This document shows positions 27,673 through 49,776 of a stretch of 64,000 bases of DNA, one piece after another. A program made the translations under genes and the position numbers. Within the stretch, counting starts at the first letter, position 1. Every line of letters begins with the position of its first letter. Below the pieces are notes generated by a model. The model worked only from the letters and a program-made list of their open reading frames with translations, had not been told where the DNA came from and made no database searches. Source of the stretch: Longimicrobiales bacterium (GTDB taxonomy: Bacteria; Gemmatimonadota; Gemmatimonadetes; Longimicrobiales; Gaopeijiaceae); assembly GCA_963664435.2 (NCBI GenBank), contig CAXXKM010000001.1, forward strand, positions 1,120,001 through 1,184,000. The letters are read 5' to 3'.

Positions 27673-31626
<3,954 letters not shown>

Positions 31627-31800: not shown

Positions 31801-32595
31801 CTTGGAGTGAACCGCGAAGGCGGCACCCTGCGCATCCATGCACACAGCGATGAACTCGCCTCCCGGCACCTCCATGGGCCCGTTGAGCACCTTCCCGCCC
31901 AGCTCGGTGGCCTTCTTCGCCGCCGCGAAGGCATCCGGCACCCGGACGTAGCTCAGCCACGCGGATACGGGCATCTCGGGAGGCCGGTTGTAGAGGCCGC
32001 CCAGAGGATGCGCGCCCCCATGGAACATCTGGTAGATGCCCGCCTCCCCCATGTCCATCCGGTCCGCTTCCTGCCAGCCGAACAACTCCGAATAGAAGGC
32101 CCAGGCGGCCTCCCAGTCGGTGGTCGCCAGTTCGCGCCAGGAGAACTCGCCGAGCTGGGCCGGCTCGTCGTGCCCGGGCGTCACGTCCGAGGGCTGATAC
32201 GCGATGAAGACCGCGTCCAGCGGATCCTTGAGCACGGCCATGCGCCCGACCTGGTCGACATCGACCATCTCGAGAACGCTTCCGCCCAGGCTCTCGGCCT
32301 TCGCGGCGCACGCATCAGCGTCCGGCGTCGACACGTAGAGCAGCCAGTGCGGCGGCACGCCCGCGCTCGCGAGATGCTCGGGGAGCTCCATCATCCCGCC
32401 GATGGGCACGCCCTCATTCATCCACAAATGGTACGGCGTCTCGCTTTCACTCCACTCGCCCATGCCCCAGCCGATCACCTCGCCGTAGAAGGCGGCTGCG
32501 GCTTCGGGGTCGCTGGTGAGCAGTTCGTGCCAGCAGAATCGACCGGTGGGTGTCGTCGTGCTTTCGGAAGGCGCGGTCGCGGTGGTGTCGGACAT
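31777..32595 (-). CDS. Two-domain VOC/glyoxalase-family protein
   Basis: WHELLTSDPEAAAAFY and WRELATTDWEAAWAFY duplicated domains. Confidence 0.88.
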   Translation of the reverse strand: MSDTTATAPSESTTTPTGRFCWHELLTSDPEAAAAFYGEVIGWGMGEWSESETPYHLWMNEGVPIGGMMELPEHLASAGVPPHWLLYVSTPDADACAAKAESLGGSVLEMVDVDQVGRMAVLKDPLDAVFIAYQPSDVTPGHDEPAQLGEFSWRELATTDWEAAWAFYSELFGWQEADRMDMGEAGIYQMFHGGAHPLGGLYNRPPEMPVSAWLSYVRVPDAFAAAKKATELGGKVLNGPMEVPGGEFIAVCMDAQGAAFAVHSKPEDMARD

Positions 32596-32610
32596 GACTT
32601 GGATTCCTCT

Positions 32611-32658
32611 CGGGATGTCGGGGATGGATGTCGGGATGTCGGGGATGGATGTCGGGAT
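32611..32658. repeat. 21-bp tandem repeat in the divergent intergenic region
   Basis: CGGGATGTCGGGGATGGATGT twice plus a partial copy. Confidence 0.75.
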
Positions 32659-32846
32659 CGGGAAAGTGGTTTTCGCGCGGCTCGATCGTTGACTCGATTG
32701 CCGGGCTCAACAATCTTGCCTCGATCCTCGATCCATTCAACGCCCGCGCGATTCGCGGCGCACACGACATCAGCCGCGAGAGGAGACGGCGCGGGCCGCG
32801 ACCCGGCGCGGCGCCACCGCGGCTCAACAGGAAAGGCGACGACTCC

Positions 32847-33320
32847 ATGACACCCATCCGCGTGGGCGCCGATGCGCCCGATTTCACCGCGTTCGCGCCT
32901 CCCGGCAGCGCGAACTTCACGCTCTCCGAGCACCGTGGTCGGCCGACCGTACTCATGTTCGTGCCGCTGGCCTTCACCAGCACATGCACGGCCGAATTCT
33001 GCCACATCGCCGAGAACTGGGGCCAGTGGGGCGAGCTTGGCGCCGACGTTGTCGGCATCAGCGTGGACTCCCCCTTCGTCAACCAGAAGTGGGGCGAGGA
33101 GATGGGCGCACCGTTCCCCATCCTCTCGGACTTCAACAAGGAAGCAGTGAGCGCATACGGGGTTCTGCAGGACGAACTCATCGGGTTGCGCGGCGTGGCC
33201 CGGCGCTCGGTGTTCGTGGTGGACGGAGATGGGCGCGTCACCTACGCCTGGGTGGCGGAGAACCCGGGCGTCCTGCCCCCGTTCGACGAGATCGTGGAGG
33301 CCGTGCAGGCGGTCGCGTGA
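32847..33320 (+). CDS. Peroxiredoxin (AhpC/TSA, AhpE-like)
   Basis: APDF, PLAFTSTCTAEFC, GISVDS, LSDFN, RSVFVVD. Confidence 0.88.
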   Translation: MTPIRVGADAPDFTAFAPPGSANFTLSEHRGRPTVLMFVPLAFTSTCTAEFCHIAENWGQWGELGADVVGISVDSPFVNQKWGEEMGAPFPILSDFNKEAVSAYGVLQDELIGLRGVARRSVFVVDGDGRVTYAWVAENPGVLPPFDEIVEAVQAVA

Positions 33321-33504
33321 CGGCCGCGGACGGGTCGGGAGCCGATGCTCCCGGCGGCTGCCGCCATGCGATTCGTATCGTGGCCTCGATCGGACCCGGC
33401 GTCCTTTCAGCGGTACCGCGTCGCCAGTTGTCCAAGATGACGAGGGTCCCTGCGGCTCACGGCAGGGGTTTGTCCGCAACACAAGCAATTTCCAGGAGAG
33501 GAAG

Positions 33505-34458
33505 ATGACGCTCACACGACGCGACTGGCTCAGGCTCACGGCTGGCGGCGGCGCCGCACTCGCTCTCACCCCCGACCTGCTGGCGTCGCTTGCGCGTCAG
33601 GAGGTCCTGGCCCGGGCCATTCCGGCAACCGGGGAGATGCTGCCGGTGGTGGGCCTCGGCAGTTCCGCCACCTTCTCACGCGTGGCGCGCAGCGAGGACG
33701 TGAGCGCCATCAGCGCCGTGCTGCAGACCTTCGTCGACAACGGCGGCACGGTGTTCGACACCGCTCCCGGCTACGGGGCTTCAGAGCAGGTGGCCGGCGA
33801 CGTCGCCAACGACCTCGGCATCCAGGAGCGGATCTTCTGGGCCACCAAGGTCAACGTCGCGGGACGCGGGGGCGGCTCGGCCGACCCGGCGGCGGCGCGC
33901 GCGCAGATCGAGCGCTCCTTCGACCGCTTCCAGCTGCCGGTCATCGACCTGATCCAGGTCCACAACCTGGGCGACCCGCCCACCCAGATCGGCATCCTCA
34001 AGGAAGAGAAGGCGGCGGGCCGGGTGCGCTACATCGGCATCACCAGCACCAGCGAGCGGCGCTATCCGGACCTCGCGGCGGTCATGCGCAACGAGCCCAT
34101 CGACTTCATCGGGGTGGACTACGCGGTCGACAACCGCGCTTCGGCCGACATGATCCTGCCGCTCGCGCAGGAGCTGGACATCGGCGTGCTCGTGTACGCC
34201 CCCTTCGGCCGCACCCGCCTCTGGAACCGCGTCAGCGGACGCGACGTGCCGGAGTGGGCCGGCGAGTTCGACGCCCACAGCTGGGCGCAGTTCTTCCTCA
34301 AGTTCGTGGTGGCGCACCCGGCGGTGACCGTGGTCACCCCCGCCACCAGCCGCCCCGAGCACATGATCGACAACCTGGGCGGCGGCATGGGCCGGCTCCC
34401 GGACGAGAGCCAGCTCGAGCGCATGGTCCAGCTCGTGGAGGATCTGCCGCCGGCCTGA
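33505..34458 (+). CDS. Tat-exported aldo/keto reductase
   Basis: TRRDWL Tat motif; DTAPGYG, WATKV, IDLIQVHN. Confidence 0.88.
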   Translation: MTLTRRDWLRLTAGGGAALALTPDLLASLARQEVLARAIPATGEMLPVVGLGSSATFSRVARSEDVSAISAVLQTFVDNGGTVFDTAPGYGASEQVAGDVANDLGIQERIFWATKVNVAGRGGGSADPAAARAQIERSFDRFQLPVIDLIQVHNLGDPPTQIGILKEEKAAGRVRYIGITSTSERRYPDLAAVMRNEPIDFIGVDYAVDNRASADMILPLAQELDIGVLVYAPFGRTRLWNRVSGRDVPEWAGEFDAHSWAQFFLKFVVAHPAVTVVTPATSRPEHMIDNLGGGMGRLPDESQLERMVQLVEDLPPA

Positions 34459-34932
34459 CGGGGGTAGGAGTCGCAGGCGGGGGAGCGCACAATTCCCTGC
34501 GAAATCCTCGTGCAGCGACCGCAGCCCGGCGTTCCTCGCGCCGGCTGCGGTCGCTGGTGCGCCCTCTGCCAGGTAGGACGCCAGTAGGTGACTGGTTGAC
34601 CTCGGTTCCAACGCTCTTTCTCAGTGCCACAAACTCAAAGAGCCGCGGGGTGGCCGTAGCGTGCTGCCGGTCCAGTGCCGGGGATGCCGTCGCGCCCGAG
34701 CTGGACGACCTCGGAGAACCGCTCTCCGCCTTGCATGCGGACCACCCTGGCGAGGCCGCCCCAGCAGTGGATGTCCCCGCCGGCGGCGAGGCCGTTTTAG
34801 CCATGGATTCGCCCGGCCATCCTGCCGATCGTCATGTTCAACGGGATTTCACCCGGAATTGCGGCGGCCGAACGTGGCTGACTCGATCATGGTGGTCTCC
34901 CACCCAAGCTGCGGGAAAACGGGATCCATCAT

Positions 34933-35031
34933 ATGAGTCGACGCGGAAAGCTACTGCAGAGGTATCAGGTACGGCAGGTCCGTGGCGTTATTCTGAAATA
35001 CAATCTTGGGGACAACCTGGATGATGCATAA
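34933..35031 (+). pseudogene. HicA-like toxin remnant with internal deletion (32 aa)
   Basis: MSRRGKLLQR fused directly to YQVRQVRGVILKYNLG; overlaps hicB start; lacks the GSH core. Confidence 0.65.
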
Positions 35032-35236
35032 GTACGAGATCATTCTGTATTGGAGCCGGACCGACGGCGCGTTTGTGGCCGAGGTCCCCGAGTTGCCTGG
35101 CTGCATGGCCCACGGAGGCACACAGCAAGTCGCTCTCCGGAACATCACGAGCGCGATGGATCTCTGGATCGATACCGCAAGGGAACACGGAGATCCGATA
35201 CCGGAACCCAGGGAAAAGCGTCTAATGCCGGCGTAA
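35021..35236 (+). CDS. hicB: Short HicB-family antitoxin
   Basis: KYEIILYWS..DGAFVAEVPELPGCMAHG...WIDTA...PIPEP. Confidence 0.88.
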   Translation: MMHKYEIILYWSRTDGAFVAEVPELPGCMAHGGTQQVALRNITSAMDLWIDTAREHGDPIPEPREKRLMPA

Positions 35237-35263
35237 GCAAGCGTCCGGCGACCGGCAATTACG

Positions 35264-37432
35264 CTACCCCTCCGGCCTCACGATCTCGTACTGCGGCGGC
35301 GGCTCCGCCCCCAGCAGGTGGCGCACGAAGTAGTCCCACCGGCGGCGGATGAAGTAGGGCTCGTTGAGGCCGTGAGCGCGGTCCGGAGCCCAGATCAGGT
35401 CGAAGTCGCGGTTGGCCTTGATGAGCTCGTCGATCACCTGGACCGTCATCGCGGGGTGGACGTTGTCGTCCATGTCGCCGTGCATCAGCAGCAGCTTCCC
35501 CTCCAGGTTCGCGGCGTAGGTCTTGTTCGCTGAAGCCTCGAAGTTGTCGGTGCCGGTCGAGTCCTCTTCCATGACGCCCTGGTACTTCTCTGCCCAGTAG
35601 ATGTTGTAGCTGCGGTTGTCGTGGTTGCCGGCCCCTGACACCGCCACCTTGAAGAAGTCGGGATAACGCAGGATGGCATCCGTGGAGGCGAACCCGCCGC
35701 CCGAGTGCCCGTAGATGCCCACCCGGTCCAGGTCGATGAAGGGGTGGCGCGCCGCGAGCTGCCGGATCACGGCGATGTGATCGGGGATGCCGTTGTCGAT
35801 GAAGTTGCCGTAGTAGTTGTCGTGGAAGGCCTTGGAGCGGTGCGGCGTCCCCATGTGGTCGATCTGCACCACCACGAAGCCGAGCTGCGCCAGCGCGAAG
35901 TTCTCGCCGCCGCCCTTGAACTCCCAGTCCCCGACGCTGCCCCGCTGGGGCTCGGGGTAGATGTGCGAGATGATCGGGTACTTCGCGTTCTCGTCCAGGT
36001 CGGGTGGGAGATGGAGGATGCCGTACAGGTCGGTGATTCCGTCGCGCGCCTTGGCCGTGAAGACCTCACCCGGGATGAAGCCGATCTCCTCGATGGCGGA
36101 GATGTCCGCCCGCTCAAGTTCGCGCACGACGCGGCCGTCGGCTACGGTCCGCAGGACGGTGACAGGCTCCCCTTCAACGCGCGAGTACGTGTCCACGAAA
36201 TAGGCGCCGCCGGGCGAGAACTCGACGATGTGGTTGGCGTCCTCCGGGGTGAGCAGCGTCAGCCCCGAGCCGTCGAAGCCGACCCGGTACAGGTGCGCGT
36301 AGTACGGGTTTCGCCCCGGCTCGCGGCCGCGCGCGGTGAAGTAGATGCGCTGCCGCGCCTCGTCGACGAAGACGGCCTGGCCGACCGTCCATGGGCCGGA
36401 GGTGATGCGGTTCCTGAGGTTGCCCTGCCCGTCGAAGCGGTAGAGGTGGGCCCAGCCGTCGCGCTCCGACCACCAGATCACGTCGTCGCCGCTCTCCGAG
36501 ACGTACCAGGACGGAGTGCCCCCGCTCGATCCCCCGCCCCGGTGACCGAGCGACACGAAGGTGCGTGTGGAGTCGCCCAGGATGACCCGTGAAGCCCCGG
36601 TCGCCGGGTCGATCTCGGCCAGGAACACGCGCTGTGAGCCGCGGGTGAAGTAGTTGACGTGCAGACGGGCGCCGTCGGCGCTCCAGGCCGAGTCCGGGGC
36701 CGAGCCGGCGAATGAGAGCTGATGGGGCGTGGGCGCCACATCGACCCGGCGATTGGCGGCGGCGCGCAGGGCGGGGACGTTCCCGTCGGCCATCTCGCCC
36801 TCCTCAAGCTCCACGATATGCACGGTGGGCAGCGGGATCACCGAGTCGCCGGGCAGCGCGTACGGCTGGGAGAAGTGCCGCGGCCGCTGCGAAGTGTACG
36901 AAACGTAGTGCATGTGCTCGACGTTGCGTTCATCCCGGCGCGCCACCGCGATGTAGCGCGAGTCCGGCGACCAGGCCAGCGTGGGGGTACGCGGCCCCGG
37001 CCCCTCCCGCTGCTGGTTGGGGCGTGGCTCGTTGTAGCCGTAGGCGTAGTGCTTCTCGCCGTCCGTGGTGAGCTGGATCGAGTCGCCGCCCCCCGCCGGG
37101 CGCACGTAAAGATCATACTCGTGCGAGAAGGCTTCCCAGCGCCCGTCGGGGGACTCCACGAAGGGCAGCCGCGAAGGGAGCGTGTCCGCCACGACGCACG
37201 AGTAGCCCGCGATGTCGCAGGTGAAGCGCCGGCTGTTGGCCGTGAACTCGATTTCGCTCTCGCCCGCGCCGAAGCTGAAGGTGCTGAAGGGCAGCTGGTC
37301 CGGGACGTAGGCGGTGTCGTTCGCGAGCGACATCGCCCCGGCCAGGCGGTAGTGGTCGAAGAGCGGTTCGCGGCTGGCCGCGGCCGGGTTCACCATCACG
37401 AACTCGTAGCCCGACCCCGTGTTGTTGCGGTA
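35264..37432 (-). pseudogene. DPP-IV/S9 peptidase, 3' part of a gene interrupted by the integrative element
   Basis: GHSGGG, HGDMDDNVH, DRAHG catalytic motifs; no signal peptide; in-frame stop at 37454-37456 just inside the element. Confidence 0.9.
37424..37432 (+). repeat. att core, left copy (GTTGCGGTA)
   Basis: Identical to 46298-46306; encodes Y-R-N of the host peptidase on the minus strand. Confidence 0.9.
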
Positions 37433-38042
37433 GCGGATCCCCAGAGGCCAGAATCACGGCAGAAGATCGTCTAACTACTTACAGGACTGCACGATCTGCG
37501 TTTTTGCCGTTGGGCCGCATCCGCTCCCGTCGTCCAGAAACAGCGGGGAAATCGCCTCAAATCGCGGGAATCTCGTTCGACACACGGCCCTTCCCATCGC
37601 GGCCTCTTCAGAGCCGCAAGCAAGGTAACCACAGGTCACCAATCGGATCGACTCGGGTCATCCCCTCGGCCATTGCACCCGCACACGCTACCAAGGCCAC
37701 CCGTGGCCGGTGCTGTTATCGTACAAGGATCCCGTACGATGCGAGCGAGACCTGCCCGAGAGCGGTGGCCCAGCATGTACTGTCCCGGCGGAGTGGCGGC
37801 GGGTGTGAATCCCGGCATGACCGCTTCCCACGCATGCGCCAAGACGGGTCCGAGCACCGCAAGCTCCGGGTGGTTGGGCTTCTACGCCTGTCAATTACGC
37901 GCGTGGAATGGCGAAACTGGCGCGCCCGAACGCGAGGACTTACGGTTCAGGAGGCGAAAGCAACACCCACAGGCACACGTTCCGAGAAGGAACAGCGCCG
38001 ATCCCGTCCAACGATCTTTACACGACTTGGAAGAGTCACGGC

Positions 38043-38555
38043 ATGAAGAGGAAACACGTTCTGGTGGTGTTTGCGATCTGGTTCGTGGGCGCGCTCATCG
38101 CCATCACGCCCTACCCCGCGCCTGTCCCGCAGGAGCAGGAGTGCTACGAGGTCGGAGAGATCGAGTGCGTCAACACATCGGCGGGCTGGGTCGCGACGTG
38201 GCCCGCCAGCCAAGAGTTTCGGGACCATATGATCGAGACCATCGACCTGCTTGAACTGTCGGGCGACTTGAACTGGCAGCAGCAGGAATTCTGCGTCCCG
38301 ATCCTCAACAACGTGAAGGGTGAGTTCCGGTCCCAAGTGCTCACCGGCCTGGGCATCTACGAGTTCAACATGTCGCACTACCACGAGGGGGTCCAACTCC
38401 AAGGACGCCACGCGCCCGGACACGGCCACCCGCACTACATGTTCAACCGCGGGCGTTGGGGCCTGATGGGGACCCTCATGATGCACGAAGTCGCGCACCA
38501 CCGGGGCCTCACCCATTCCAGCGCGAACACCGCTGAAACGTGCCTCGACCTGTAA
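38043..38555 (+). CDS. Small secreted zinc-metalloprotease-like protein (HExxHxxGxxH)
   Basis: N-terminal hydrophobic signal; HEVAHHRGLTH near the C-terminus; four Cys. Confidence 0.7.
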   Translation: MKRKHVLVVFAIWFVGALIAITPYPAPVPQEQECYEVGEIECVNTSAGWVATWPASQEFRDHMIETIDLLELSGDLNWQQQEFCVPILNNVKGEFRSQVLTGLGIYEFNMSHYHEGVQLQGRHAPGHGHPHYMFNRGRWGLMGTLMMHEVAHHRGLTHSSANTAETCLDL

Positions 38556-38571
38556 GGATGGAGGAGAGACG

Positions 38572-39099
38572 ATGAGACACGCACTACTCGCAACGACACT
38601 GATGCTCGCTCTCGCGGCCTGCACGGACCAAGCCGGCATGATGGACGCCGAGTTTTCCCAGGAGGATGTCTCCGGGGCCGCGCTCGATCGCGCGCCCCAA
38701 GCGGCCACCATGAAGGAGGACGAGCGTCACCCGCTGATGCTCGCGATCCTCGACAAGCTGCTCGCCGAGCACCCGGACGCCGCCGGCGGGCGCGTCAACC
38801 TAGACGGCATGTTCGGGGGCGCGTACGTGGGCGAGACCGTCACCCGTGCCGGCCAGAGCTTCGAGCGGGTTTCCGCTGGCACGAAGGTGGAGAAGGGCAC
38901 CTACACGATCACGTTCCAGGACCTCAAGATGACGGCGACCAACGAGGCCGTGATGGGCGTCGGGCTGCTCCACGCGGACGAGAACGGGAGCGTGTTGGAC
39001 CACGTGTACGAGGTTCTACTCGTGCGCGACGACGACGACATATGGACGGCCGACCTCACGTACAAGGGACACTTCGACGGGGTACTCGAGGGAAGCTGA
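38572..39099 (+). CDS. Hypothetical lipoprotein
   Basis: RBS GGAGGAG; lipobox LAAC; 16 bp after the HExxH gene. Confidence 0.75.
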   Translation: MRHALLATTLMLALAACTDQAGMMDAEFSQEDVSGAALDRAPQAATMKEDERHPLMLAILDKLLAEHPDAAGGRVNLDGMFGGAYVGETVTRAGQSFERVSAGTKVEKGTYTITFQDLKMTATNEAVMGVGLLHADENGSVLDHVYEVLLVRDDDDIWTADLTYKGHFDGVLEGS

Positions 39100-39543
39100 C
39101 CCGCATTTCCCGCACCAGAGCAATCTGTGACCGCGACCGACAGGCAACGCGAGCGCGGAGGACTGGTGCCCGTGTGTGCTACATCGCGTCGCACGATCTG
39201 AACCGTTGCGGCCGGTAGCCGCTCTCAACAGCAGGCCATCGGTCCTCTGCTCTTTGGGCGGGAACACAGCACCTATGCAGAAGGCGCCGTAGAACAGCGT
39301 CCCCGTTCTCCCTTGAACTGAATCTCCAGCGCGTCCTCCAGCCCCCGACCGGACGGTTACGAGCGGCGGCCCGTCCCCAGCGCCTCGACACGGGCCAGGC
39401 GGTCGCAGGAATAGGAAGCGAGGAGCGACGCCAGTCGTTCAAGCTAATCGCCGAGCGGGCCGACCGGGTAGCAAGAACCGGTCGCTGAAGGACCACACCC
39501 GATTCTCCAAGGTCTTCGGGGCCATGACGGATTTCCGGCTGGC

Positions 39544-39821
39544 TTACAAAGCGCCCGCCTGAGGGGCGCGGGCGGCCCGCCGAGACATTGCGGGGGTGTT
39601 TTCCGCCCCGTTGGCGACGGCCGGTGTCGAAGCCCCGGAGTTCAGGGCCCGGGCAATCTGGTTAAGGTTCACGCCGATCCGGCGGAGTTCGACGCGCTCC
39701 CATGCACCGAGATGCGTGCCGCCGCGGCCCGCTCGGCGATCTCGGCGGCTTCCGCGGTCGTTGCGCGCACGCCGATCATGCGCGTCTTGCGCTCGGCTTC
39801 GGGCTTCTGGGGACGGGCCAA
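39544..39821 (-). pseudogene. Second, internally deleted and frameshifted mobC
   Basis: AAGGAGG + TTG start; ARPQKPEAERKTRMIGVR...AERAAAA in one frame, ELRRIGVNLNQIARALN in another. Confidence 0.75.
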
Positions 39822-39866
39822 GTCGGACGGCCTCCTTGGGTGGCTCGCGGAATGTTGTTGCGGGCT

Positions 39867-39920
39867 CCGGGGGATTACCCCCGGCCAGAGGTTTTCGAGA
39901 AACGAAAAACACATCTTTTC
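39867..39920. promoter_or_regulatory. Possible relic oriT upstream of the mobC remnant
   Basis: Hairpins CCGGGGG-ATTA-CCCCCGG and GTTTTCG-AGAAA-CGAAAAAC directly 5' of the mobC remnant. Confidence 0.4.
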
Positions 39921-40010
39921 GGCTTTCCGGCATCGGAACCCAGAGTCTTGCGGTGTGCCACCCGTCCCCATAGCGTCAAGGACCTCACCCAAACGAAGAG
40001 GAGGCATAGC

Positions 40011-40523
40011 ATGAAGACGCGTGTATCGATCCCGTGGCTGGTTGCGGTGGTCGCGCTTGCGGCATGTGACGGGTCCACGCGACCGGATGGGCAGCAGCCT
40101 GATAGTGTGGAACCACCAGGGTGGCCGCTGAAGGTTGGCGACAGGGTGGGCGAGGTGACGCGCTCGAGGTTAAAGCGCGAGTTCGGCACCATCGTCCTGC
40201 ATCACCAGTTCGTGAAGAGACCTGCCGAATACACACATCCGAATCAGGAGCGTTACGGGTTCGCCGAGTTCGAGATCATGTACGAGGAGACCGGCGGACT
40301 GACTGAGGGCGAGGACAACGCGCTGTATGCGTGTGAGGATCCACCGGCACCTTCCGCCAACGGGACCATCTCGATCGACCAAGAAGACGGCGATTCCGAC
40401 GAGATCGAGCCTTGGAAGACGGTGGACGGCGCTTACAAGTTCTCGTTTGCGGCGAGCGTTCGGTGCGACCCCGACAAGCGCTACAGAATGCTGTATGTGT
40501 ACCGGGGGCACGTCCGTCCGTGA
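40011..40523 (+). CDS. Hypothetical lipoprotein
   Basis: RBS GAGGAGG; lipobox LAAC; two further Cys. Confidence 0.72.
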   Translation: MKTRVSIPWLVAVVALAACDGSTRPDGQQPDSVEPPGWPLKVGDRVGEVTRSRLKREFGTIVLHHQFVKRPAEYTHPNQERYGFAEFEIMYEETGGLTEGEDNALYACEDPPAPSANGTISIDQEDGDSDEIEPWKTVDGAYKFSFAASVRCDPDKRYRMLYVYRGHVRP

Positions 40524-40987
40524 GGATGGTCGTCGGATGCCTGTGTGCATTCGTCCTGTCCGCGTTCGCGCCGGTGTCTCAAAGCGAAGAGATCGAAAAG
40601 GAATTCGAGAAGAAATGGAGGTGGAACGGCACCGGTCGGTTGTGGACGGACACCGAGCTCGGCTTCTGGAGCCAGCGCCTCCGATTCCTCGATTGGGACG
40701 CGACCACCGAGTGCCAAAACCACCGCAACGCGATGGTGAGCCTCTACAACGGCGGTCACGATTTGGGATGGGCCAGCCCCAGGGGCAACCGCGGTGGCAC
40801 GCACTTCTGGCGTGGCCAAGAGGATTGGATCATCATCTCGCCAAAGGGCTTCGGCGGTCGCCAGAACGACGATGTGGTCAGATCCATGGTACACGAAGCG
40901 GCACACCATTTTGCCGGGCCACAGGCTGGACATAGCCAAGACTGGCAGGAAATCGTCGATTGTGTCCTGTCTTATTCGGGAGCGTGA
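40520..40987 (+). CDS. Small secreted HExxH (SprT/minigluzincin-like) protein
   Basis: GTGA overlap with the lipoprotein stop; signal-like N-terminus; HEAAHHFAGPQAGHSQDW. Confidence 0.68.
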   Translation: MRMVVGCLCAFVLSAFAPVSQSEEIEKEFEKKWRWNGTGRLWTDTELGFWSQRLRFLDWDATTECQNHRNAMVSLYNGGHDLGWASPRGNRGGTHFWRGQEDWIIISPKGFGGRQNDDVVRSMVHEAAHHFAGPQAGHSQDWQEIVDCVLSYSGA

Positions 40988-41519
40988 CTTCTAGTTGCCT
41001 TCGGGTTGATCGCGTTGACGGCGTGCGGTTCGTGACAACGCCTCCTCACTCGGTCGTCCCGCGGCCCAAGACCTTCGCTCTTGGATTCGGTAGAAACCCG
41101 GACAGGACAGACGGCGTAATGGTTCCTTGGCCGGTTCCTCCCAAATCCGATCTTCCGTCCTGAGGTGTTGCGGACTTGAAGCGCGCTCGCCAGTGCCCCG
41201 GAGTTCCGACTTGCAACCGTACTGGAGTGCGAGAACGACACGGGGGGTCGATGTGCATTTTGGCATTCCAGCGATGCGCACGGACGTTCGCGCCTATCCG
41301 CATGCGCAACAGCGTCCTTGCGGCCTCGCCGCCCCGTTCGCCTGTGGCGTAAGGGGCGCTCGGGCCGTGACGCTAGTCTCCATGTCAAGTGGACGCCAGT
41401 TTTTCTCGAAGCGACCTGCCTCGCAGCGCCCCTCGCGACGCTTCCGCTTCGGTGCTCATTCTGGCCCGGCTCGATCATCTGTGAACGCTCCCCGCCGGGC
41501 TGGGCGTTGGGAATGGCCG

Positions 41520-42100
41520 GGCAGGAGTATTCGCCCGGACGATGCGCCGTCCAAGTGCGGTCCTGCTGCACTAGAGGGCATTGGCGAGGATGAGGAGTCT
41601 CCGCATCATGGCCGTCAGGGCGACCTTCGGCGGCTTCCCTCGGGCCACGAGCGCTTCCTACTTCCGCTTGACGTCGGGAATATGGCGGACGACAACTATC
41701 GCGGGCATGTAGAGGAGCCTGCGCACCCGGTGCCTGCCGCCCTGGATGAAGCCGCGTCTCTTCCAGTATCCAGACACTTGGGTTGACCGGGGCCAGCCCG
41801 GCGAGGCTGGCGGCTCGGGCACCGGTGAGTGCCCAGGTACGGCAAGTGGACGATCAGTCCCTCGGCGGTGGCGTCCGAGATCGAGCCGCCCGCCGGATCT
41901 CGGCGTCTATGAACTTCATCCGGGCGCTCGATCTGCCTCAGCCTCTTTCGACGGCAGCTGCCATGGTGGCCAGCATCCGGGCGTCCACCGCGTCGGTCTT
42001 GGCGCGTCGGTCATGAGAGCGGGCGAAGGACCGGACTCGGAAGGGGTCGATCACGTAGAGGGGGAGTCCGGAGTCCCAAACGGCGGAGGACGGGCATGTT
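41520..42100 (-). pseudogene. Degraded IS110-family transposase
   Basis: Fragments GLPLYVIDPFRVRSFARSHDRRAKTDAVDARMLA, ASLAGLAPV, SG..FIQGGRHRVRRLLYMPA, RGKPPKVALTAMMRRLLILANAL with stops and frameshifts. Confidence 0.85.
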
Positions 42101-42537
42101 CGCCGTGCTGTGCGCGGCCGCGCTGTGCGTCGTGCGACGTGACGCGCGCGCGCCCGGGCTCGAACTTCTATGGGTCCGAGGAAGGCAACGGGCCGAGGCG
42201 GTTGGTAAACGCGGGCGGCCTGCGGGACGGGTCCCGTGCTGGAGTTCCACGTGCCCGACCGGAAGCTGGCAGGTCTCCACAGCGTCCGCGTCGTCGAGAT
42301 AGCCGGTCAGGACCACTGGCTCCTCGAAGCGGACGACCACCGGGCCACCGTCGCGCGCTGACGGCGGGAGCGTCGTAGGTCGGCCAACGCGCCGCCTTGG
42401 AGAGTTCGCCCCGTTGCTGAAACACTTTGGCACGGTCGCCCGTACGGGGATGCCTGGTAGCGCGAACAGGCTCGCCAGATGCCGAAGGTGGAGGCGTTTT
42501 CGACAAGCCGCTGGCGGCGGATTCCCGAAGCTCCCGT

Positions 42538-42570
42538 ACGTTACCGGACATCCTCGAACGTTACCGGACA
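42538..42570. repeat. 13-bp direct repeat ACGTTACCGGACA, 20-bp period
   Basis: Copies at 42538-42550 and 42558-42570. Confidence 0.7.
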
Positions 42571-42904
42571 AGAGGAGGTTTCCGAAGGGTTGACTGCCTC
42601 AAGGACGGTTGTTCAACGTCTCGGCTATGGAGACGCTGACACAGCCGCTCGACAGGGAAGCGGGCGGTACGATCGCCCATCGTGACGGCCGCCAAGGTGC
42701 GCGCGGGTCCTTCGACTTGACCGGACACCGGACCGAATCGATTGCGCTCGCATGCCGCTGCGGAGAGGCGTTCGCCCACGCCCGGCGTGCGCGGCTCATG
42801 GACCGCGCAAGCCGAGGCGCCGGGCAGCGCATGAGCGCGTCGAGGAGGTCGATGCCGACCTGTTCCCGGGCGCGGCCCACGGGGGCGTTGGTCGCTGTTA
42901 AGGC

Positions 42905-43040
42905 GTCCAGCCAGCCTACCCATTGTCATACAATGGGGCTGGCGAGGGGCTGGCTCCCGCCCCCCCTTCGAACCCCCCGCTGTTCGCGCTCCCGAGGAGG
43001 TCGCGGATGGGGGCGCCGCCCCCTTTCCCCCGTGTCGGTG
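42905..43040 (+). promoter_or_regulatory. Putative oriT
   Basis: Hairpin CCCATTGT-CAT-ACAATGGG followed by GCTGGC, immediately upstream of mobC as in ColE1-type mob regions. Confidence 0.6.
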
Positions 43041-43047
43041 CGGCGTG

Positions 43048-43386
43048 ATGCCTGAGCGCCGCACCGCCGTCGTCACCGCCCGCGTGTCGGCGGCCGAGTC
43101 CGCCGACTGGCGGGCCAAGGCGGAGGCCGCAGGCATACCGCTGTCCGCGCTGATCCGGCGGGCCATGGCCCGTACACGGACCTGGACCGCACGCGCGGCC
43201 GAGGTCGAGCGCGAGCGCACCCGGCAGGTGTCGCGCGTCGGGAACAACCTCAACCAGATCGCCAAGTGGGCCAACACCCACAAGGGGGCGGCCGAGGCCG
43301 TCGAGGTCCTCGCCCGGCTTGTGGCCATCGAGCGCGCGCTCGGCGCGCTGGCTCGCTTCGAGAGTCCGGACTCCGATGCACGTTAA
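43048..43386 (+). CDS. mobC: MobC/MbeC relaxosome accessory protein
   Basis: RHH N-terminus; SRVGNNLNQIAKWAN; overlaps the relaxase start. Confidence 0.92.
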   Translation: MPERRTAVVTARVSAAESADWRAKAEAAGIPLSALIRRAMARTRTWTARAAEVERERTRQVSRVGNNLNQIAKWANTHKGAAEAVEVLARLVAIERALGALARFESPDSDAR

Positions 43387-44947
43387 GTTCTTGGCGCACG
43401 GGACCGGCTCGGCCGGCAAGGCGGCAGGCTACCTCCTCGGGGAGCGGGACGCCGCCGGGAAGCTGCGCGAGGGCGTCGAGGTGTTGCGCGGGAACCCGGA
43501 CATGGTGGCCGCGGTCGCCGACTCGCTCGACTTCGAGCACAGGTACACCTCCGGCGTGATCGCCTGGGCACCGGACGACCACCCCACCGACGAGCAGATC
43601 GAAGCTGTGCTCGACGAGTTCGAGAAGACGGCTTGGGCGGGGCTGGAGCCCGACCGGTACGCCTGGGCGGCCGTGCTACACCGTGAGGAGGGCGGAGGCG
43701 CGCACGTCCATGTCCTCGCCGCTCGGTGCGACTTGGAGACCGGGCGGAGCCTCAATATTGCGCCACCGGGTTGGCAGCGGACGTTCGATCCGCTCCGCGA
43801 CGCCTTCAACCACGAGCACGGCTGGAGCCGTCCAGACGACCCGGAGCGGGCCAGAGTGCAGCACCCCGGCCACCGCGCCTACATCGAGGCGACCCGGCTG
43901 CGGGCCGGACTACGGCTCGAATCCTCCCCCCGCGACCTGATCCGGGACTACCTGCTCCAGCGTGTCGAGCACGGCGCGGTCAAAGACCGCCACGATGTTG
44001 TCGCCGCGCTCCGGGAGGCGGGCCTTGAAGTGCCGCGCCAGGGCATGGACTACATCACCGCGCTGGACCCCGAAACCGGGGACCGGTGGCGGCTGAAAGG
44101 AGAACTGTACGGAGTTGATTTCCAACGCGAACGATTTGACCGAACGGCTGCGGAGGAGGCTGGAACACGAGCGCAGGGAGATCGAGGAGTTGACCGCGAG
44201 CGAGCTCGAAAGGCTCGGCGAGCACTCGCGGCGCGTCGCGAGGAGCGCGGTGCGTACCATCGAGCGCGATACGGAGGAGGCGACCGGCAAGATGCGCGAG
44301 TTGCTGGTCAAGGCGTGGCAACGGCCGCTGATCGTCGGCCTGAGTCTTTGGATCGGTTTCTTCGGCGGAAGCTGGGCGACGATGCGCTGGTTGGCGGGCA
44401 GCATTCAGGACCGGATCGTGACCCGAGCCGAACTGAACCGGGACATCGAAGACGCCCGGCGGACGCTGGCCCAGCTGGAGGAGGACACCTGGGGGCTCGT
44501 GTTCCACGAGATCAAGGGCGAGAGGTTCGTGGTGGTGCCGGACGGGGTGCTGGACGATCCGCCCTGGTGGGTGGAACCGGGGCACCTTCCGGCGTTGAAG
44601 CTGTCGAACGAGTGAAGGAGATCTATGACCGCGTTAGAGGAGCAGTTGACGAGGGCCTTGCGGAGGCTGTGCGCGCAGTACGAAACGGAACAGCAGCGGC
44701 ACTCCGAGCAGGTCGCAGCCTTGCAAGGGCACGTCGAGCGGCAAGGCGGAGAGATCGAAGCCTTGCGGCAGCACGTCGAGCGGCAGAGCGCGGAGTACGA
44801 AGCCTTGCAGATGCAAATCGAGCGGCTCGACGCGCTGGCGACACGCTTGGCCGAGTATTTCGGGACATCCGCCGTCGCGAGACGGCGCGGCCTCCGTATC
44901 TGATGCGCCGCCCGGGACCGGACCGCGATCAAGGTCCGAGCCGCTGA
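43376..44947 (+). CDS. mobA: MOBP relaxase, ColE1 MbeA-like with a 3H motif
   Basis: MHVKF..G.G....YLLG, VLRGNP, YTSGVIAW, LHREEGGGAHVH; C-terminal ...DRDQGPSR tail. Confidence 0.92.
   Translation: MHVKFLAHGTGSAGKAAGYLLGERDAAGKLREGVEVLRGNPDMVAAVADSLDFEHRYTSGVIAWAPDDHPTDEQIEAVLDEFEKTAWAGLEPDRYAWAAVLHREEGGGAHVHVLAARCDLETGRSLNIAPPGWQRTFDPLRDAFNHEHGWSRPDDPERARVQHPGHRAYIEATRLRAGLRLESSPRDLIRDYLLQRVEHGAVKDRHDVVAALREAGLEVPRQGMDYITALDPETGDRWRLKGELYGVDFQRERFDRTAAEEAGTRAQGDRGVDRERARKARRALAARREERGAYHRARYGGGDRQDARVAGQGVATAADRRPESLDRFLRRKLGDDALVGGQHSGPDRDPSRTEPGHRRRPADAGPAGGGHLGARVPRDQGREVRGGAGRGAGRSALVGGTGAPSGVEAVERVKEIYDRVRGAVDEGLAEAVRAVRNGTAAALRAGRSLARARRAARRRDRSLAAARRAAERGVRSLADANRAARRAGDTLGRVFRDIRRRETARPPYLMRRPGPDRDQGPSR
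44115..44615 (+). CDS. mobB: MbeB/MobB-like protein nested in the relaxase in an alternative frame
   Basis: Coiled coil, TM segment, then LEEDTWGLVF...ERFVVVP as in MbeB. Confidence 0.75.
   Translation: MISNANDLTERLRRRLEHERREIEELTASELERLGEHSRRVARSAVRTIERDTEEATGKMRELLVKAWQRPLIVGLSLWIGFFGGSWATMRWLAGSIQDRIVTRAELNRDIEDARRTLAQLEEDTWGLVFHEIKGERFVVVPDGVLDDPPWWVEPGHLPALKLSNE
44625..44903 (+). CDS. mobD: MbeD/MobD-like coiled-coil protein nested in the relaxase
   Basis: RBS AAGGAG; MTALEEQLTRALRRL..QY resembles the MbeD N-terminus. Confidence 0.78.
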   Translation: MTALEEQLTRALRRLCAQYETEQQRHSEQVAALQGHVERQGGEIEALRQHVERQSAEYEALQMQIERLDALATRLAEYFGTSAVARRRGLRI

Positions 44948-45039
44948 TGGCTCAGGGCAGGGCTGGATCTGGCGCGGGCAACACCGCTCAGCGAAGTTTC
45001 GTTCGCGCAGATCGTGCGGTCCATCACGAGAGGAATCGA

Positions 45040-46203
45040 ATGATGGCACGCACGAAGCGGGACCGGCGCAGCTACAGCGCCGGCGAGTGGGGCCGGAACC
45101 GGGTGAGGGTGTTTGCCGATCCCAAGACCGGTCTCTACCAGATTGAGTGGCGAGAGAACGGGCGCAGGCTCACCCGATCCCTGAAGCACCGGGACTGGTC
45201 GAGAGCCAAGCGGCAGGCCGACGAGGCCGCCGCAGGCCTCGCGACATACGAGCCCAACGGCAAGGCCGAGGCCGAACCCGAGCCGCTCACTCTGGAGAAG
45301 CTGTTTGACATTTATGGTGAGGAGGTGACGCCGACCAAGGGCGAGCACACCCAACGACACGACAAGATCGCGATGCGGATGTTCCTGCGGTTCTTCGGGA
45401 AGGACCGCGACCCGGCGACACTGTCACAGAGGGACTGGGACCGCTTCATCCGGGCGCGGCGCGCGGGCAAGGTCGGACCGAGCGGCAAACCCGTATCCGA
45501 CCGGACGGTCGAGTGCGACCTGCGGTTCCTGATCGCGGTGCTCAACTGGGCGGCGAAGTCCAGGGACGAGCAGGGGAGACTCCTGCTCGACTCGAATCCG
45601 CTGAGGGGCCTGAAGACGCCCAAGGAGAAGAACCCCACCCGCGTCGTCCTTTCGGAGGAGGAGTACCAGGCGATGCTCGGGATATCCCGGCAGGTCGATT
45701 GGCGGTTCCGCGTCGCGTTCGTGCTCGCCCACGAGACCGGACACCGAATCGGAGCCATCCGCAACCTTCGTTGGAGGGACATCGATTTCGAGGGTCGCGA
45801 GGTGCGGTGGCGCGCTGAACACGAGAAGACCGGCTACGAGCACGTCACGCCGATGACGGACGAGGCGGTAGCAGTGTTGGAGGAGGCGCGCGAAACGAAC
45901 CCCGGGAACGGGAAGACGCCGGTCTTGCCCGCGCTGCGGGACCCCTCGGCGAGCATCAGCTCTAGGCTGGCGGGTGCATGGTGGCACAAGGCCGAGCGCC
46001 TTGCGGGGCTGGAACCCCGGCGAGGGAGAGGCTGGCATTCGCTCAGGCGGAAGTTCGCTTCGGATCTCATGGACTTGCCGCTCAAGGTGCTGTGCGAACT
46101 GGGCGGCTGGAAGGAGGCCCAGACGGTGCTCCGCTGTTATCAGCAGGCCGACGCTGGACAGCTCAGGAAGGCTTTGGAGAGTCGGCCGAGAGTTCGCGCC
46201 TGA
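45040..46203 (+). CDS. int: Tyrosine recombinase/integrase
   Basis: Catalytic set R (TGHRIG), K (HEKTG), HxxR (WHSLRR), W (LGGW), Y (RCYQQ); N-terminal arm-binding-like domain. Confidence 0.93.
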   Translation: MMARTKRDRRSYSAGEWGRNRVRVFADPKTGLYQIEWRENGRRLTRSLKHRDWSRAKRQADEAAAGLATYEPNGKAEAEPEPLTLEKLFDIYGEEVTPTKGEHTQRHDKIAMRMFLRFFGKDRDPATLSQRDWDRFIRARRAGKVGPSGKPVSDRTVECDLRFLIAVLNWAAKSRDEQGRLLLDSNPLRGLKTPKEKNPTRVVLSEEEYQAMLGISRQVDWRFRVAFVLAHETGHRIGAIRNLRWRDIDFEGREVRWRAEHEKTGYEHVTPMTDEAVAVLEEARETNPGNGKTPVLPALRDPSASISSRLAGAWWHKAERLAGLEPRRGRGWHSLRRKFASDLMDLPLKVLCELGGWKEAQTVLRCYQQADAGQLRKALESRPRVRA

Positions 46204-46297
46204 CCCAACTCGATTGGCGGGAATCAAACAGCGGGAATACGGTGTGTGAGTCCCGTAAGGTCAACGGTCACAGCAAGTTGTGAACTCTATGACTTCC

Positions 46298-46306
46298 GTT
46301 GCGGTA
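46298..46306 (+). repeat. att core, right copy (GTTGCGGTA)
   Basis: Identical to 37424-37432. Confidence 0.9.
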
Positions 46307-46513
46307 CCAGAAGCGGTCGGTGTCCCCCGTTTCCAGCCAGTTCGGCACTACTTCGGCCCCCGCGATCATCCGCTCGGTGTTCCAGGTCAGAAAGCGCTCG
46401 GCGCGGGAGTAGTCCACCTCCTGGGCGGCGGCCGCCCCACCCCCGGCGAAGGCTGCGAACAGGGTCGCCAGAGCGAACGGACGAGCGACGGAAGCATGGA
46501 CCGGATAACGCAT
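46298..46513 (-). pseudogene. DPP-IV/S9 peptidase, 5' part (72 codons including signal peptide)
   Basis: GGAGG RBS + ATG at 46513; MRYPVHAS...AAAAQEVDYSRAERFL...PNWL...DRFWYRN ends at the att core. Confidence 0.88.
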
Positions 46514-46654
46514 GGGGCCTCCAGATGCATTGGGGATGCGGGGTATCGGGATGATTGCGGAATCCGCACGGGGCGGGGATAATCCGTGGTGCCAATGTGC
46601 GGAGGTGCCGGAACGCGCGGCAAACCGTCCCCGACCCCAGCATCGAGAGCCCAC

Positions 46655-48061
46655 ATGAGCGAGATCAGCTTTACCGCACAGGTCGACCGTCACTTCCACA
46701 AGGCGGCCGCCCACACGAGCCACCCCCCGGGCCTCCTCGAGCAGATCCGGGTCTGCAACAGCGTTTATGCGTTCGCCTTCCCCATCCGCAAGGACGACGG
46801 CACCATCGAGGTGATCCACGCCTGGAGGGCGGAGCACAGCATGCACAAGACCCCCACCAAGGGGGGGATTCGCTACGCCTCGCACGCCAACCAGGACGAA
46901 GTGGTGGCGCTCGCAACCCTCATGACCTACAAGTGCGCCCTGGTCGAAGTCCCCTACGGCGGCGCCAAGGGCGCGGTCTGCATCGACCGGCGCCAGTACT
47001 CGGACGCCGAACTCGAGCGCATCACCCGGCGCTACACCTTCGAGCTGGTCGCCAAGAACTTCATCGGCCCGGGCATCGACGTGCCCGCCCCGGACTACGG
47101 GACCGGGGCCCGCGAGATGGCCTGGATCGTCGACACCTACGAGCAGATCGCCACGTCCAAGCTCAACGCCGCAGGGTGCGTGACCGGCAAGCCGATCGCG
47201 CAGGGCGGCATCCGCGGGCGCACCACCGCCACCGGGCTCGGCGTCTTCTTCGGAATCCGCGAAACCTGCCTCGACGCGGGATTCATGAAGGATCTGGGCC
47301 TGCAGCGGGGCGTCGGCGGCAAGCGCATCGTCATCCAGGGGCTCGGCAACGTGGGCTACCACGCCGCCTGCTTCCTGCACGACGCGGGCGCCGTCATCAC
47401 GGGCATCGCCGAATACAACGGCGGCATCTGGTCCGAGTCCGGCATCGATCCGCGGGCGGCCCGGGAGCACTTCCGAGAACACGGCTCGCTCCCCGGCCTG
47501 CCGGGAACGTCCGGCGTGGAAAACGGCATGGATCTGCTGGAGGCCGAGTGCGACATCCTCGTTCCCGCGGCCATCGAGAACGTGATCACCGACGAGAACG
47601 CGGGGCGAATCCGCGCCTCGATCGTCGCGGAGGCCGCCAATGGTCCCACCACCGCCGCCGCGGCGGAAATGCTCCTCGAGCGAGGCGTGCTGATCCTCCC
47701 CGACATGTATCTGAACGCCGGAGGGGTCACCGTCTCGTACTTCGAGTGGCTGAAAAACCTCTCCCACGTGCGCATGGGCCGGATGGAGAAGCGATTCGAG
47801 GAGGCGAGCAACCGCCGGCTGCTGGCCGCGATGGAGGCGGTGACGGGGTATCAGCTCTCCGAGGCGGTGCTGGGCACGGCGGCCAAGGGCGCGAGCGAGG
47901 AGGATCTGGTCCGCTCGGGCCTGGAGGACACCATGGTCAACGCCCACAATTCCAGCTGCGAGGTGGCGCGCCGCCACGGCGTCGACCTGCGTACCGCGGC
48001 CTACATCATGGCCATCGACAAGATCGCGCTGATCTACGCGGAGCGAGGGATCTTCCCGTAG
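46655..48061 (+). CDS. gdhA: Glutamate dehydrogenase (Glu/Leu/Phe/Val family)
   Basis: PTKGGIRY, GGAKG, DVPAPD, QGLGNVG, NAGGVTVSYFEW. Confidence 0.93.
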   Translation: MSEISFTAQVDRHFHKAAAHTSHPPGLLEQIRVCNSVYAFAFPIRKDDGTIEVIHAWRAEHSMHKTPTKGGIRYASHANQDEVVALATLMTYKCALVEVPYGGAKGAVCIDRRQYSDAELERITRRYTFELVAKNFIGPGIDVPAPDYGTGAREMAWIVDTYEQIATSKLNAAGCVTGKPIAQGGIRGRTTATGLGVFFGIRETCLDAGFMKDLGLQRGVGGKRIVIQGLGNVGYHAACFLHDAGAVITGIAEYNGGIWSESGIDPRAAREHFREHGSLPGLPGTSGVENGMDLLEAECDILVPAAIENVITDENAGRIRASIVAEAANGPTTAAAAEMLLERGVLILPDMYLNAGGVTVSYFEWLKNLSHVRMGRMEKRFEEASNRRLLAAMEAVTGYQLSEAVLGTAAKGASEEDLVRSGLEDTMVNAHNSSCEVARRHGVDLRTAAYIMAIDKIALIYAERGIFP

Positions 48062-48072
48062 GAAGGACCCCC

Positions 48073-49776
48073 CTACTTGAACACGCGCTCGAACTCGTCG
48101 CGCTGCGAGTTGGTGCCGACGAAGAGCACGTGCTCACCCCTGCGGATGACGCGCCCCGGCCGCGGATGGGGGTTGACCACCCCGTTGCTCTCGACGGCGA
48201 TCACGGCGAGCCCGGTGCGCGCCAGGATCCCGCTCTCGCGCAACTGCTTGCCGTCCAGCGAGCGCGGCACCTCCGCGTTGAAGAGGTCGAGTCCCTCTCC
48301 GAAGATCATGGGTTCCCTGCCGCGCAGGGCGCCCAGGACCGACTGGATCTTGATCTGCGAGTCGCTCACGGCGAAATCGGCGCCGGCGCGATGGATGGCC
48401 TCGACGTTGGAGGGGTGGCTGACCCGGCTGACGATGATCGTATCCGGATTGAGCTTCCGGCAGTAGACCGCGAGGAAGATGTTAACAGCGTCTTCGTGCG
48501 TGGTGAGCACGACGGAAGCCGCCTCCGTGATCCCGAGCCGCGTCATGACCCGGCTGTCCGCCGCGTCCCCGATCACTACGTCGTTCGCGACCTCCTCGAT
48601 GCTCTCCCGCAGGGTCGGGTCGCGCTCCACGACCCGAACCGACGCCCCCCGGCCCTGCAGCGCACGGGCCACCTCGCATCCGACCCGGCCGCCGCCGATC
48701 ACCAGCACGCGCCCACCGCAGGTAATGCCATCGCCCAGATACCCGTTGAGCGCCTCCACCTCGGCCGCGGTTCCCACCGCCAGTCCGATGCAGTCCTCCC
48801 TCAGGAGCGTATCGGGCAGCCCCGGTTCCAGGTGGCCCCTCTTGGCGAGGGCGGCCACGGTCACGCCCGTTTGCGCCCGCACCTGCGCGTCCTCCAGGGT
48901 CATCCCGGCAAGACGGGTATTGCGGATGGGAAACTCGGCGATCGCGATCTGCCTGTAGCGGCCGACGGTCAGCGCGCGCGCCGAACCGACCGACACCCTG
49001 TTGGCCAGCTGCTTGCCGAGCCTCCGGGCGGTCAGCACGACCTGGTTGGCCCCGGCCAGCTCCAGCACCGCCTCCCCCTCGGGGTTCACCGCGGTGGCCA
49101 CGATGGGAATCCGCTCCGATACCTCGCGCGCCGTGAGCACGATGTTGGTGTTGACCTCGTCCGCGGCGTTCGCCAGCAGAAGTCTCGCGCGCCCGAAGGC
49201 GCAGTTCTCGTAGGTGGCCCGCACGCCGAGGTTCCCGCGCACCACCGGCAACTTGTCGGCGTGCAGGGAAGCGGCCTGCAGCGGATCGGACTCGATCACC
49301 ACGCTCTCGATTCCGGAGAGCGCCAGCCGTTCGATGAGCTCCTCGGCCACATCGTCGCAGGTGCTGATGATGACGTGTCCCTCGAGCTCCGCGGGGACGC
49401 GCGTGCGCACCCGGGTCTTGAACTGGGCTTCCACCCAGGGCGCGTAGAAGCGGACGAAGGCCACCGGCAGGTAGATGAGCAGCATGCTGACCCCGGCCAC
49501 CAGCACCACCATGCTGAATATGCGCCCGAGGTCCGACTGGAACACGATGTCGCCGAACCCCAGCGTACTCATGGTTGTGAGGGTCCAGTAGATGCCCGTG
49601 AACCAGTCGTGCTCCTGGCCCTCGCGCGCCATCAGCAGCTGGAAGATCGCCGATGACACGGCAATGAAGGTGACCAGCACAACCGCGAAGCCCAGCAGGT
49701 TCAGAGGCCTCAACTCGGCGTTGCCGCGATGGCTGCCGCCGACCAGGTCGGCGATTGCGCCGATGGTTCCCTTCAT
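48073..49776 (-). CDS. Potassium channel protein with tandem TrkA-N/TrkA-C (RCK) domains
   Basis: Pore signature TMSTLGFGD; GGGRVG Rossmann motif. Confidence 0.88.
   Translation of the reverse strand: MKGTIGAIADLVGGSHRGNAELRPLNLLGFAVVLVTFIAVSSAIFQLLMAREGQEHDWFTGIYWTLTTMSTLGFGDIVFQSDLGRIFSMVVLVAGVSMLLIYLPVAFVRFYAPWVEAQFKTRVRTRVPAELEGHVIISTCDDVAEELIERLALSGIESVVIESDPLQAASLHADKLPVVRGNLGVRATYENCAFGRARLLLANAADEVNTNIVLTAREVSERIPIVATAVNPEGEAVLELAGANQVVLTARRLGKQLANRVSVGSARALTVGRYRQIAIAEFPIRNTRLAGMTLEDAQVRAQTGVTVAALAKRGHLEPGLPDTLLREDCIGLAVGTAAEVEALNGYLGDGITCGGRVLVIGGGRVGCEVARALQGRGASVRVVERDPTLRESIEEVANDVVIGDAADSRVMTRLGITEAASVVLTTHEDAVNIFLAVYCRKLNPDTIIVSRVSHPSNVEAIHRAGADFAVSDSQIKIQSVLGALRGREPMIFGEGLDLFNAEVPRSLDGKQLRESGILARTGLAVIAVESNGVVNPHPRPGRVIRRGEHVLFVGTNSQRDEFERVFK

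Follow-up and report, generated by a model that had tools for sequence, protein, structure and literature searches.

Elements that split a host gene and restore it on excision, such as those named skin and nifD, can act as gene switches, and the locus described here raises the question of whether such a switch or a passing parasite has entered a bacterial gene. The locus lies in a 64,000-nucleotide stretch of a Longimicrobiales genome (the window; C1:1,120,001-1,184,000 of the 4.51-Mb host genome G000, which is 96% complete), in which an 8.9-kb insertion interrupts the gene of a secreted peptidase of the dipeptidyl peptidase IV (DPP-IV)/S9 family. In this report, we demonstrate that the insertion is real, that it belongs to the integrative mobilizable elements (IMEs) and that the WYR/N codons of DPP-IV/S9 genes are a preferred, not exclusive, target of its subclade of integrases; in addition, a very recent insertion and transfer between genera are strongly supported. 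Overall, the evidence favours a parasite that spreads and has a preferred target over a switch built into the gene. The parts of the gene and the ends of the element are arranged as follows.

35264..37423, minus strand: 3' part of the peptidase gene, with DPPIV_N and Peptidase_S9 domains
37424..37432, plus strand: distal 9-bp direct repeat, with the 7-bp overlap at 37426-37432
37433..46306, plus strand: integrative mobilizable element, the 8,874-bp excisable unit
46298..46306, plus strand: integrase-proximal 9-bp direct repeat, with the 7-bp overlap at 46300-46306
46307..46513, minus strand: 5' part of the peptidase gene, from ATG at 46513 to ...DRFW, with GGAGG at 46518-46522

The direct repeat GTTGCGGTA occurs in the window only in these two copies and extends on neither side; no junction repeat longer than 9 bp and no inverted arms at the junctions were found. 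Excision of the 8,874 bp gives an open reading frame (ORF) of 2,376 bp that encodes 791 amino acids and ends in a single terminal stop, and the restored protein combines a DPPIV_N propeller with an S9 domain that has Ser/Asp/His triad motifs at S646, D724 and H756, as expected of the S9/DPP-IV family, behind an N-terminus that was assigned by eye as signal-peptide-like. With the element integrated, the 5' part terminates after 81 amino acids, the 3' frame is shut by a TGA at 37454-37456 and no substitute N-terminus is supplied. An earlier note on this DNA had claimed the repeats, the joined 791-residue gene and the missing replacement N-terminus, and all three were borne out. With 44 copies in the genome, the 9-mer is weak evidence by itself, and proof of the insertion is therefore comparative.

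Among 14 orthologues fetched from the same genus, 13 have an empty site (nine align across residues 1-791 at 91.0-92.7%, one aligns at 86.2% with an in-frame insert, and three are truncated by contig ends), and the joined protein is colinear with the full-length homologues, in agreement with the joining proposed before. The fourteenth, in G011, is interrupted at the identical base and by the same element end; its 5' peptidase part and the upstream gene gave no match in this 90% complete assembly. The exact empty-site pattern has 37 matches in 36 of 314 family genomes, a lower bound given the exact pattern search. The orthologues differ in the length of a Gly/Ala-rich loop close to residue 285, which is 13 amino acids shorter here than in most and 44 amino acids longer in L014 (G001).

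We then consider what the integrase recognizes. Because two mapped secondary sites have only TGCGGTA in common, the crossover overlap was set at these 7 bp; thus, the 9-bp repeat that the earlier note took as the junction has the right coordinates, and the actual overlap is the shorter sequence within it. For this subclade of integrases, a family-wide search in 314 genomes yields seven proximal ends in six genomes, of which four lie in S9 genes at WYR/N (one in the host genome, one in G166 and two in G252, which is the same as G061) and three lie elsewhere. With an additional distal end in the S9 gene of G011, five of eight insertions are at the S9 WYR/N codons, and the suggestion that homologous integrases also sit in S9 genes at WYRN holds. 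These S9 insertions span two paralogous S9 genes and two genera, with element lengths of 8.9, 10.5 and 29.0 kb at the S9 site and differing cargo. The non-S9 insertions hit a PF00144 serine hydrolase of G005 at its stop codon, a gluconate 2-dehydrogenase subunit 3 gene of G011 and a site without an assigned gene in G198, for which no distal end with a matching overlap was found within 40 kb. At the serine hydrolase (L033, G005:C1:1638790), the first base of the element recreates the TAG stop, which makes this insertion harmless. TGCGGTA itself occurs 392 times in the host genome. A metagenome scan gave 27 matches, three of them genuine element ends (contigs L064, L067 and L075), all in S9 genes; the other 24 lack element context and were dismissed as chance.

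The recent-insertion reading of the earlier note is strongly supported, because a 100% identical copy of the element, 8,883 bp long and without a mismatch, is present in another genus (G166), and this copy indicates very recent transfer. It sits in an S9 paralogue 61% identical to the host protein, and the G166 orthologue itself is empty; a second sibling element lies about 290 bp upstream of the interrupted paralogue (L131, G166:C2:295200-296500). Across the subclade, the integrase genes are 92-100% identical, compared with 69-88% for the S9 genes of their hosts. In addition, one metagenome contig has a flank 99.3% identical to the host genome and an element end 94.6% identical (93 bp), and more than one variant has therefore occupied the site.

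The content of the element is as follows.

37453..37572, plus strand: conserved distal-end motifs ATCACGGC (37453), GGACTGCACGATCTGC (37484) and GCGGGAAT (37564), candidate arm or regulatory sites
38043..39099, plus strand: cargo pair 1, a 170-residue HExxH protein and a 175-residue lipoprotein-like protein
39669..40007, minus strand: degenerate second mobC/nikA-like segment
40011..40987, plus strand: cargo pair 2, a 170-residue lipoprotein-like protein and a 155-residue HExxH protein, with a weak SprT-like match under the cut-off
41350..42080, minus strand: broken transposase remnant, repeated in the genome and without a family match, which we take to be IS110-like
43045..43386, plus strand: MobC/NikA relaxosome accessory gene
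43376..44947, plus strand: relaxase (PF03432), MbeA-like along its length, under the NCBIfam cut-off
44115..44615, plus strand: ORF overlapping the relaxase in another frame, kept in siblings, MbeB-like by position only and without a family match
44625..44903, plus strand: MbeD/MobD-like coiled-coil ORF overlapping the relaxase, match just under the cut-off
45007..45022, minus strand: inverted second copy of the 16-bp distal-end motif with 1 mismatch, directly upstream of the integrase start
45040..46203, plus strand: tyrosine integrase of 387 residues (PF00589), with arm-binding-like N-terminal, core-binding and catalytic domains
46217..46238, plus strand: proximal-end GCGGGAAT repeats in tandem, candidate arm-type sites

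The integrase retains its catalytic residues, as the earlier note had held: R236, K263, H333, R336, W357 and Y367 are shared by 22 of 22 sequences in the alignment. In the structure models, residues of about 11-69 form beta-strands and a helix that look arm-binding-like (pLDDT 60-77), and lambda Int and Tn1549 Int match best by fold, at a mean pLDDT of 64 and thus modest confidence; residues 1-77 had no Pfam match, and no AB-type NCBIfam or Pfam arm-binding model scored above its cut-off. Named homologues of the integrase belong to Ca. Palauibacter and Gemmatimonadota. The relaxase has an MbeA-like score of 100.6 against a cut-off of 500, and profile searches found no match to mating-pore or coupling-protein genes inside 37433-46306, nor was an oriT located there. 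An intact integrase of its own, end repeats with an empty site in relatives, and a relaxase without a complete conjugation module together make this an IME, built from a three-domain tyrosine integrase and ColE1-type mob genes. No cargo protein belongs to a Pfam or NCBIfam family above cut-off, and the nearest Atlas clusters (0.92) are unnamed; the proteins look secreted and zinc-peptidase-like by sequence, cargo pair 1 has a homologous pair (34% and 31%) in a sibling element, and the pairing of HExxH and lipoprotein-like proteins presumably resembles that of enzyme-inhibitor or toxin-immunity pairs. The neighbouring genes at 27673-34458 and 46586-51897 are ordinary, with an aldo/keto reductase and a Glu dehydrogenase identified by Pfam; on the same flanks are genes that we take, from their motifs, to be a catalase-peroxidase-like protein, an M28-like peptidase, a glyoxalase-like protein, a peroxiredoxin-like protein, a TrkA-type channel and a PQQ sugar dehydrogenase-like protein.

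The element is one of many in its host. Of 35 integrase matches in the genome, 32 reach at least 69% identity, and some are partial. There are also 28 proximal-end motifs, of which two are spurious and 20 pair with a distal end on the same contig through an identical 7-mer; pairing required at least 6 shared letters, the offsets proved to be fixed within 2 bp, and the 7-mers were identical in 20 of 20 cases. These 20 paired elements total 349,626 bp, or 7.7% of the genome, giving at least 20 siblings. Insertion of the Tn916 type, without homology, was considered and rejected on account of these identical 7-mers. Sibling targets include MscS, Rce1-like, MmeI, xanthine/uracil permease, IS1595, LCAT-like and AHSA1 genes, as well as palindromic repeats, a tRNA and other siblings' integrase genes. 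At eight of the 20 paired sites, several subclades hit palindromic repeats such as CCTGACGTAACGTCAGG and CTGCCAAAATGGCAG, which have 11-20 copies in the genome. The overlap changes with the integrase: 67 aligned integrases have 40 different overlaps, and the overlap is shared in 26 of 30 integrase pairs at 95% identity or more versus 12 of 2,059 pairs below 80%, pairs being non-independent. This set comes from three genomes plus one sequence from the G005 locus set (68 collected, one short row dropped); overlaps of G061 and G011 were taken from the proximal offset alone, eight were hand-shifted by one base, and the integrase tree is a FastTree tree with no support test. Within the host family, 18 of 67 other genomes have one strict distal-end pattern, versus 0 of 133 in two sister families, a tally that takes in the unpublished G037 and G056, both zero.

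Several siblings deserve separate mention. Large siblings of 31-50 kb at C1:704724-736263, C3:540413-583637 and C3:1152301-1202465 contain VirB4-like and coupling-protein-like ORFs and are candidate integrative and conjugative elements, and from their predicted genes four large siblings are likely helpers for transfer. Three proximal ends without a partner, close to the end of C1 (C1:1570095-1572801), have the same 7-mers as three distal ends close to the end of C2 (C2:1086106-1099849); paired by eye, they suggest that three nested elements bridge a contig gap and that C1 and C2 adjoin. At the start of C3 (C3:727-865), a proximal and a distal end adjoin each other, as in a tandem or circle-like junction of siblings, and L046 (MPNE01000080.1) has a distal end identical over 28 bp to that of the element here but with the overlap CTGCCAT and a different inner motif, a recombinant end.

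Together, these observations are most probably explained by a selfish, lambda-type mobilizable element that prefers WYR/N of DPP-IV/S9 genes through identity of the 7-bp overlap and loose core contacts. We propose that the integrase binds the arm-like repeats of the two ends and makes its cuts at each side of the overlap, which would release a circle and restore the peptidase gene exactly; the relaxase would pass this circle to a larger sibling's conjugation machine, and in the recipient the circle would integrate where TGCGGTA lies in a tolerable context, mostly in an S9 gene and sometimes elsewhere. The secreted peptidase would be off while the element is resident, because no replacement gene end is carried, and the host would tolerate the loss; further DPP-IV paralogues persist in its genome. 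Some observations speak against this explanation. The empty site and the circle junction are absent from the genome's own assembly, and no excisionase or recombination directionality factor (RDF) was found by Pfam, NCBIfam or sibling conservation among 13 non-cargo ORFs, a search in which small RDFs are easily missed. The VirB4-like and coupling-protein-like ATPase matches of the four large siblings are short and weak, and no PF03135 (VirB4) was found. All four fully mapped interrupted S9 genes rejoin to open frames, which a switch predicts likewise, and in one pair of related hosts the element and its flank have diverged to the same degree (95.6% and 95.9%), with 42 mature codons showing 4 synonymous and 3 non-synonymous changes, as would suit an insertion that both hosts have long shared.

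Population data were available as contigs of four runs from three studies, aligned to 34000-48500 and insensitive to rare forms; the named runs containing this DNA are sponge metagenomes. In runs X1, X3 and X4, the depth of the cargo contigs is 3-8 times that of the adjoining flank contigs, a ratio that is not a copy number. This excess, together with the identical copy in another genome, could be taken to mean that a repeat of a co-resident organism was joined into the gene during assembly. We consider such an artefact extremely improbable, since both flanks belong to one gene in the right order, short-read contigs from three studies hold flank and element letters without mismatch, and the separate metagenome contig with the 99.3% identical flank contains the proximal junction. 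Flank contigs end at 37451 (X1, X4) and start at 46289 (X1, X3), and the flanks of the G166 insertion first diverge from those of the host at 37421 and 46319; if the G166 insertion is also present, these breaks are the exact branch points expected for 31-letter words, presumably the word length of the run assemblies. X1 and X4 extend 19 mismatch-free letters beyond the distal repeat, fewer than the 31 letters that the alignment tool requires. X7 contains another S9 allele, with 37 differences over 432 bp, which continues 46 letters into the element; 16 of its 18 listed letters match G005, whose own S9 site is empty.

The same contigs bear on excision, for which the earlier note had proposed read mapping across the empty site and the circle junction; searched in contigs, neither was seen, and no circle joint is among the 15 of 31 joints shown (contigs only). 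Because the flank contigs of X1, X3 and X4 extend less than 31 letters beyond the repeat, and because rare forms drop out of contigs, these data limit only a common excised form. Joints from 36477/36478 to 46303/46304 have sides of 22-23 letters with unknown letters between them; we read them as intact homologues of other organisms and not as excision.

Besides recent insertion, the earlier note had offered an excision-controlled switch, and this second reading gained no positive support: occupancy is patchy, other sites are used and no excised form was found in the assembly or the contigs. Under such regulated gene integrity, cue-driven excision by the host or the element would turn the secreted peptidase on. 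Excision would indeed restore the gene exactly, one gene family is targeted repeatedly, no replacement sequence is supplied, and a promoter scan found no sigma-70-like promoter (0 sites) at the distal element end; disruption without replacement is, in the available part of PMC10111431, where the term is defined, usually understandable as regulated gene integrity. The halves are also intact, with ratios of non-synonymous to synonymous substitution rates (dN/dS) of 0.08-0.12 for the interrupted halves versus intact genes and 0.07-0.14 among intact genes; this does not discriminate, because a recent insertion predicts intact halves as well. We nevertheless regard the switch as improbable. In contrast to repurposed switches, for which loss of transfer is described (PMC8987985, available part), the element is intact and mobile and has recently been transferred; S9 sites are mostly empty, with 37 matches versus five occupied; the same integrase uses three non-S9 sites, and siblings interrupt unrelated genes. 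An empty-site path would break the X1, X3 and X4 contigs at 37432 and 46298, and no such break is seen. Instead of fixation and immobilization in a lineage, we find patchy occupancy, an identical copy across genera and turnover at the site. The broader idea that the family forms a bank of reversible knock-outs in sponge-symbiotic Gemmatimonadota, with each subclade addressed by its own 7-bp overlap and keeping a different host gene silent until excision, and with the TGCGGTA subclade switching secreted DPP-IV peptidases, appears to us similarly doubtful.

Selection could also favour the insertion itself, if loss of the peptidase or the predicted secreted HExxH/lipoprotein cargo benefits the symbiont. 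In G061, both mapped WYRNNTG-type S9 genes are interrupted, and the secreted, zinc-peptidase-like appearance of the cargo would suit such a benefit; however, cargo differs between elements at the same site, and the peptidase gene is under purifying selection across the genus, with no deletions or frameshifts among the 13 intact orthologues. The missing 5' part in the incomplete G011 assembly tempers this absence of gene loss. On balance, a selective benefit seems quite unlikely, and the selfish mobilizable element remains the preferred explanation.

The locus provides a precisely mapped case in which a base-identical element has passed between uncultured sponge symbionts of two genera, and the 67 integrases, whose 40 overlaps drift with integrase divergence, form a natural series for the study of integrase target change; were excision cued, the locus would also act as a switch for an enzyme secreted by an animal symbiont. 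The target class, DPP-IV/S9 genes entered mid-gene and without repair, was not found in print: our literature search, which lay outside the TIGER tables of regulated gene integrity, found no paper on S9/DPP genes as an integration target, nor any matching paper on this element family in sponge Gemmatimonadota. The host group is described in PMC10469786, in the available part of which the word 'peptidase' is absent and 'mobile' occurs once.

Several known systems resemble parts of this one. Like the element here, with its MobC, MbeA-like relaxase and two overlapping ORFs, the ColE1 mob region consists of mbeC-mbeA with overlapping mbeB and mbeD. The genes here differ in being chromosomal and in one run with an integrase gene, and in a relaxase score far under the cut-off. 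In Tn916/Tn1549, the coupling sequences at the ends do not match, in contrast to the identical 7-mers at both ends of the 20 paired elements. The overlap of lambda is likewise 7 bp, and lambda-type integrases share the apparent three-domain layout and the use of secondary sites. A classification of arm-binding tyrosine integrases that includes lambda Int and Tn1549 Int is available (PMC8138268, seen as excerpts), and the present integrase differs in passing no AB-type arm-binding model cut-off.

Among IMEs, those with a tyrosine integrase and a MobP relaxase include NBU1, Tn4555 and a Burkholderia IncP island, and the element resembles them in its integrase, relaxase and accessory factor, the lack of mating-pore genes, the direct repeats at its ends and its nesting within other elements (PMC5704250, in the portion available). 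The same portion describes site-specific tyrosine IMEs as carrying the end of the target gene, without disruption, and reports disruption for serine-integrase IMEs; the present tyrosine IME disrupts its target mid-gene and is therefore a variant, and it further differs in that no RDF was found and in having more than 20 paralogues per genome. Excisable switches, such as the comK prophage and the sporulation and heterocyst elements, also leave a gene in two parts that excision restores exactly, and the accessible text of PMC8987985 ties them to immobilised elements; the element here is still moving between genera, and no cue, excised form or vertical fixation was found. A likeness in targeting behaviour is to the HE-PICI integrase clade, in which protein genes are hit repeatedly without replacement, site groups track the integrase phylogeny and some insertions are off-target; HE-PICI, as presented in the available part of PMC10111431, are phage satellites in late genes of their helpers, whereas the element described here is conjugatively mobilizable and resides in a peptidase gene of its host.

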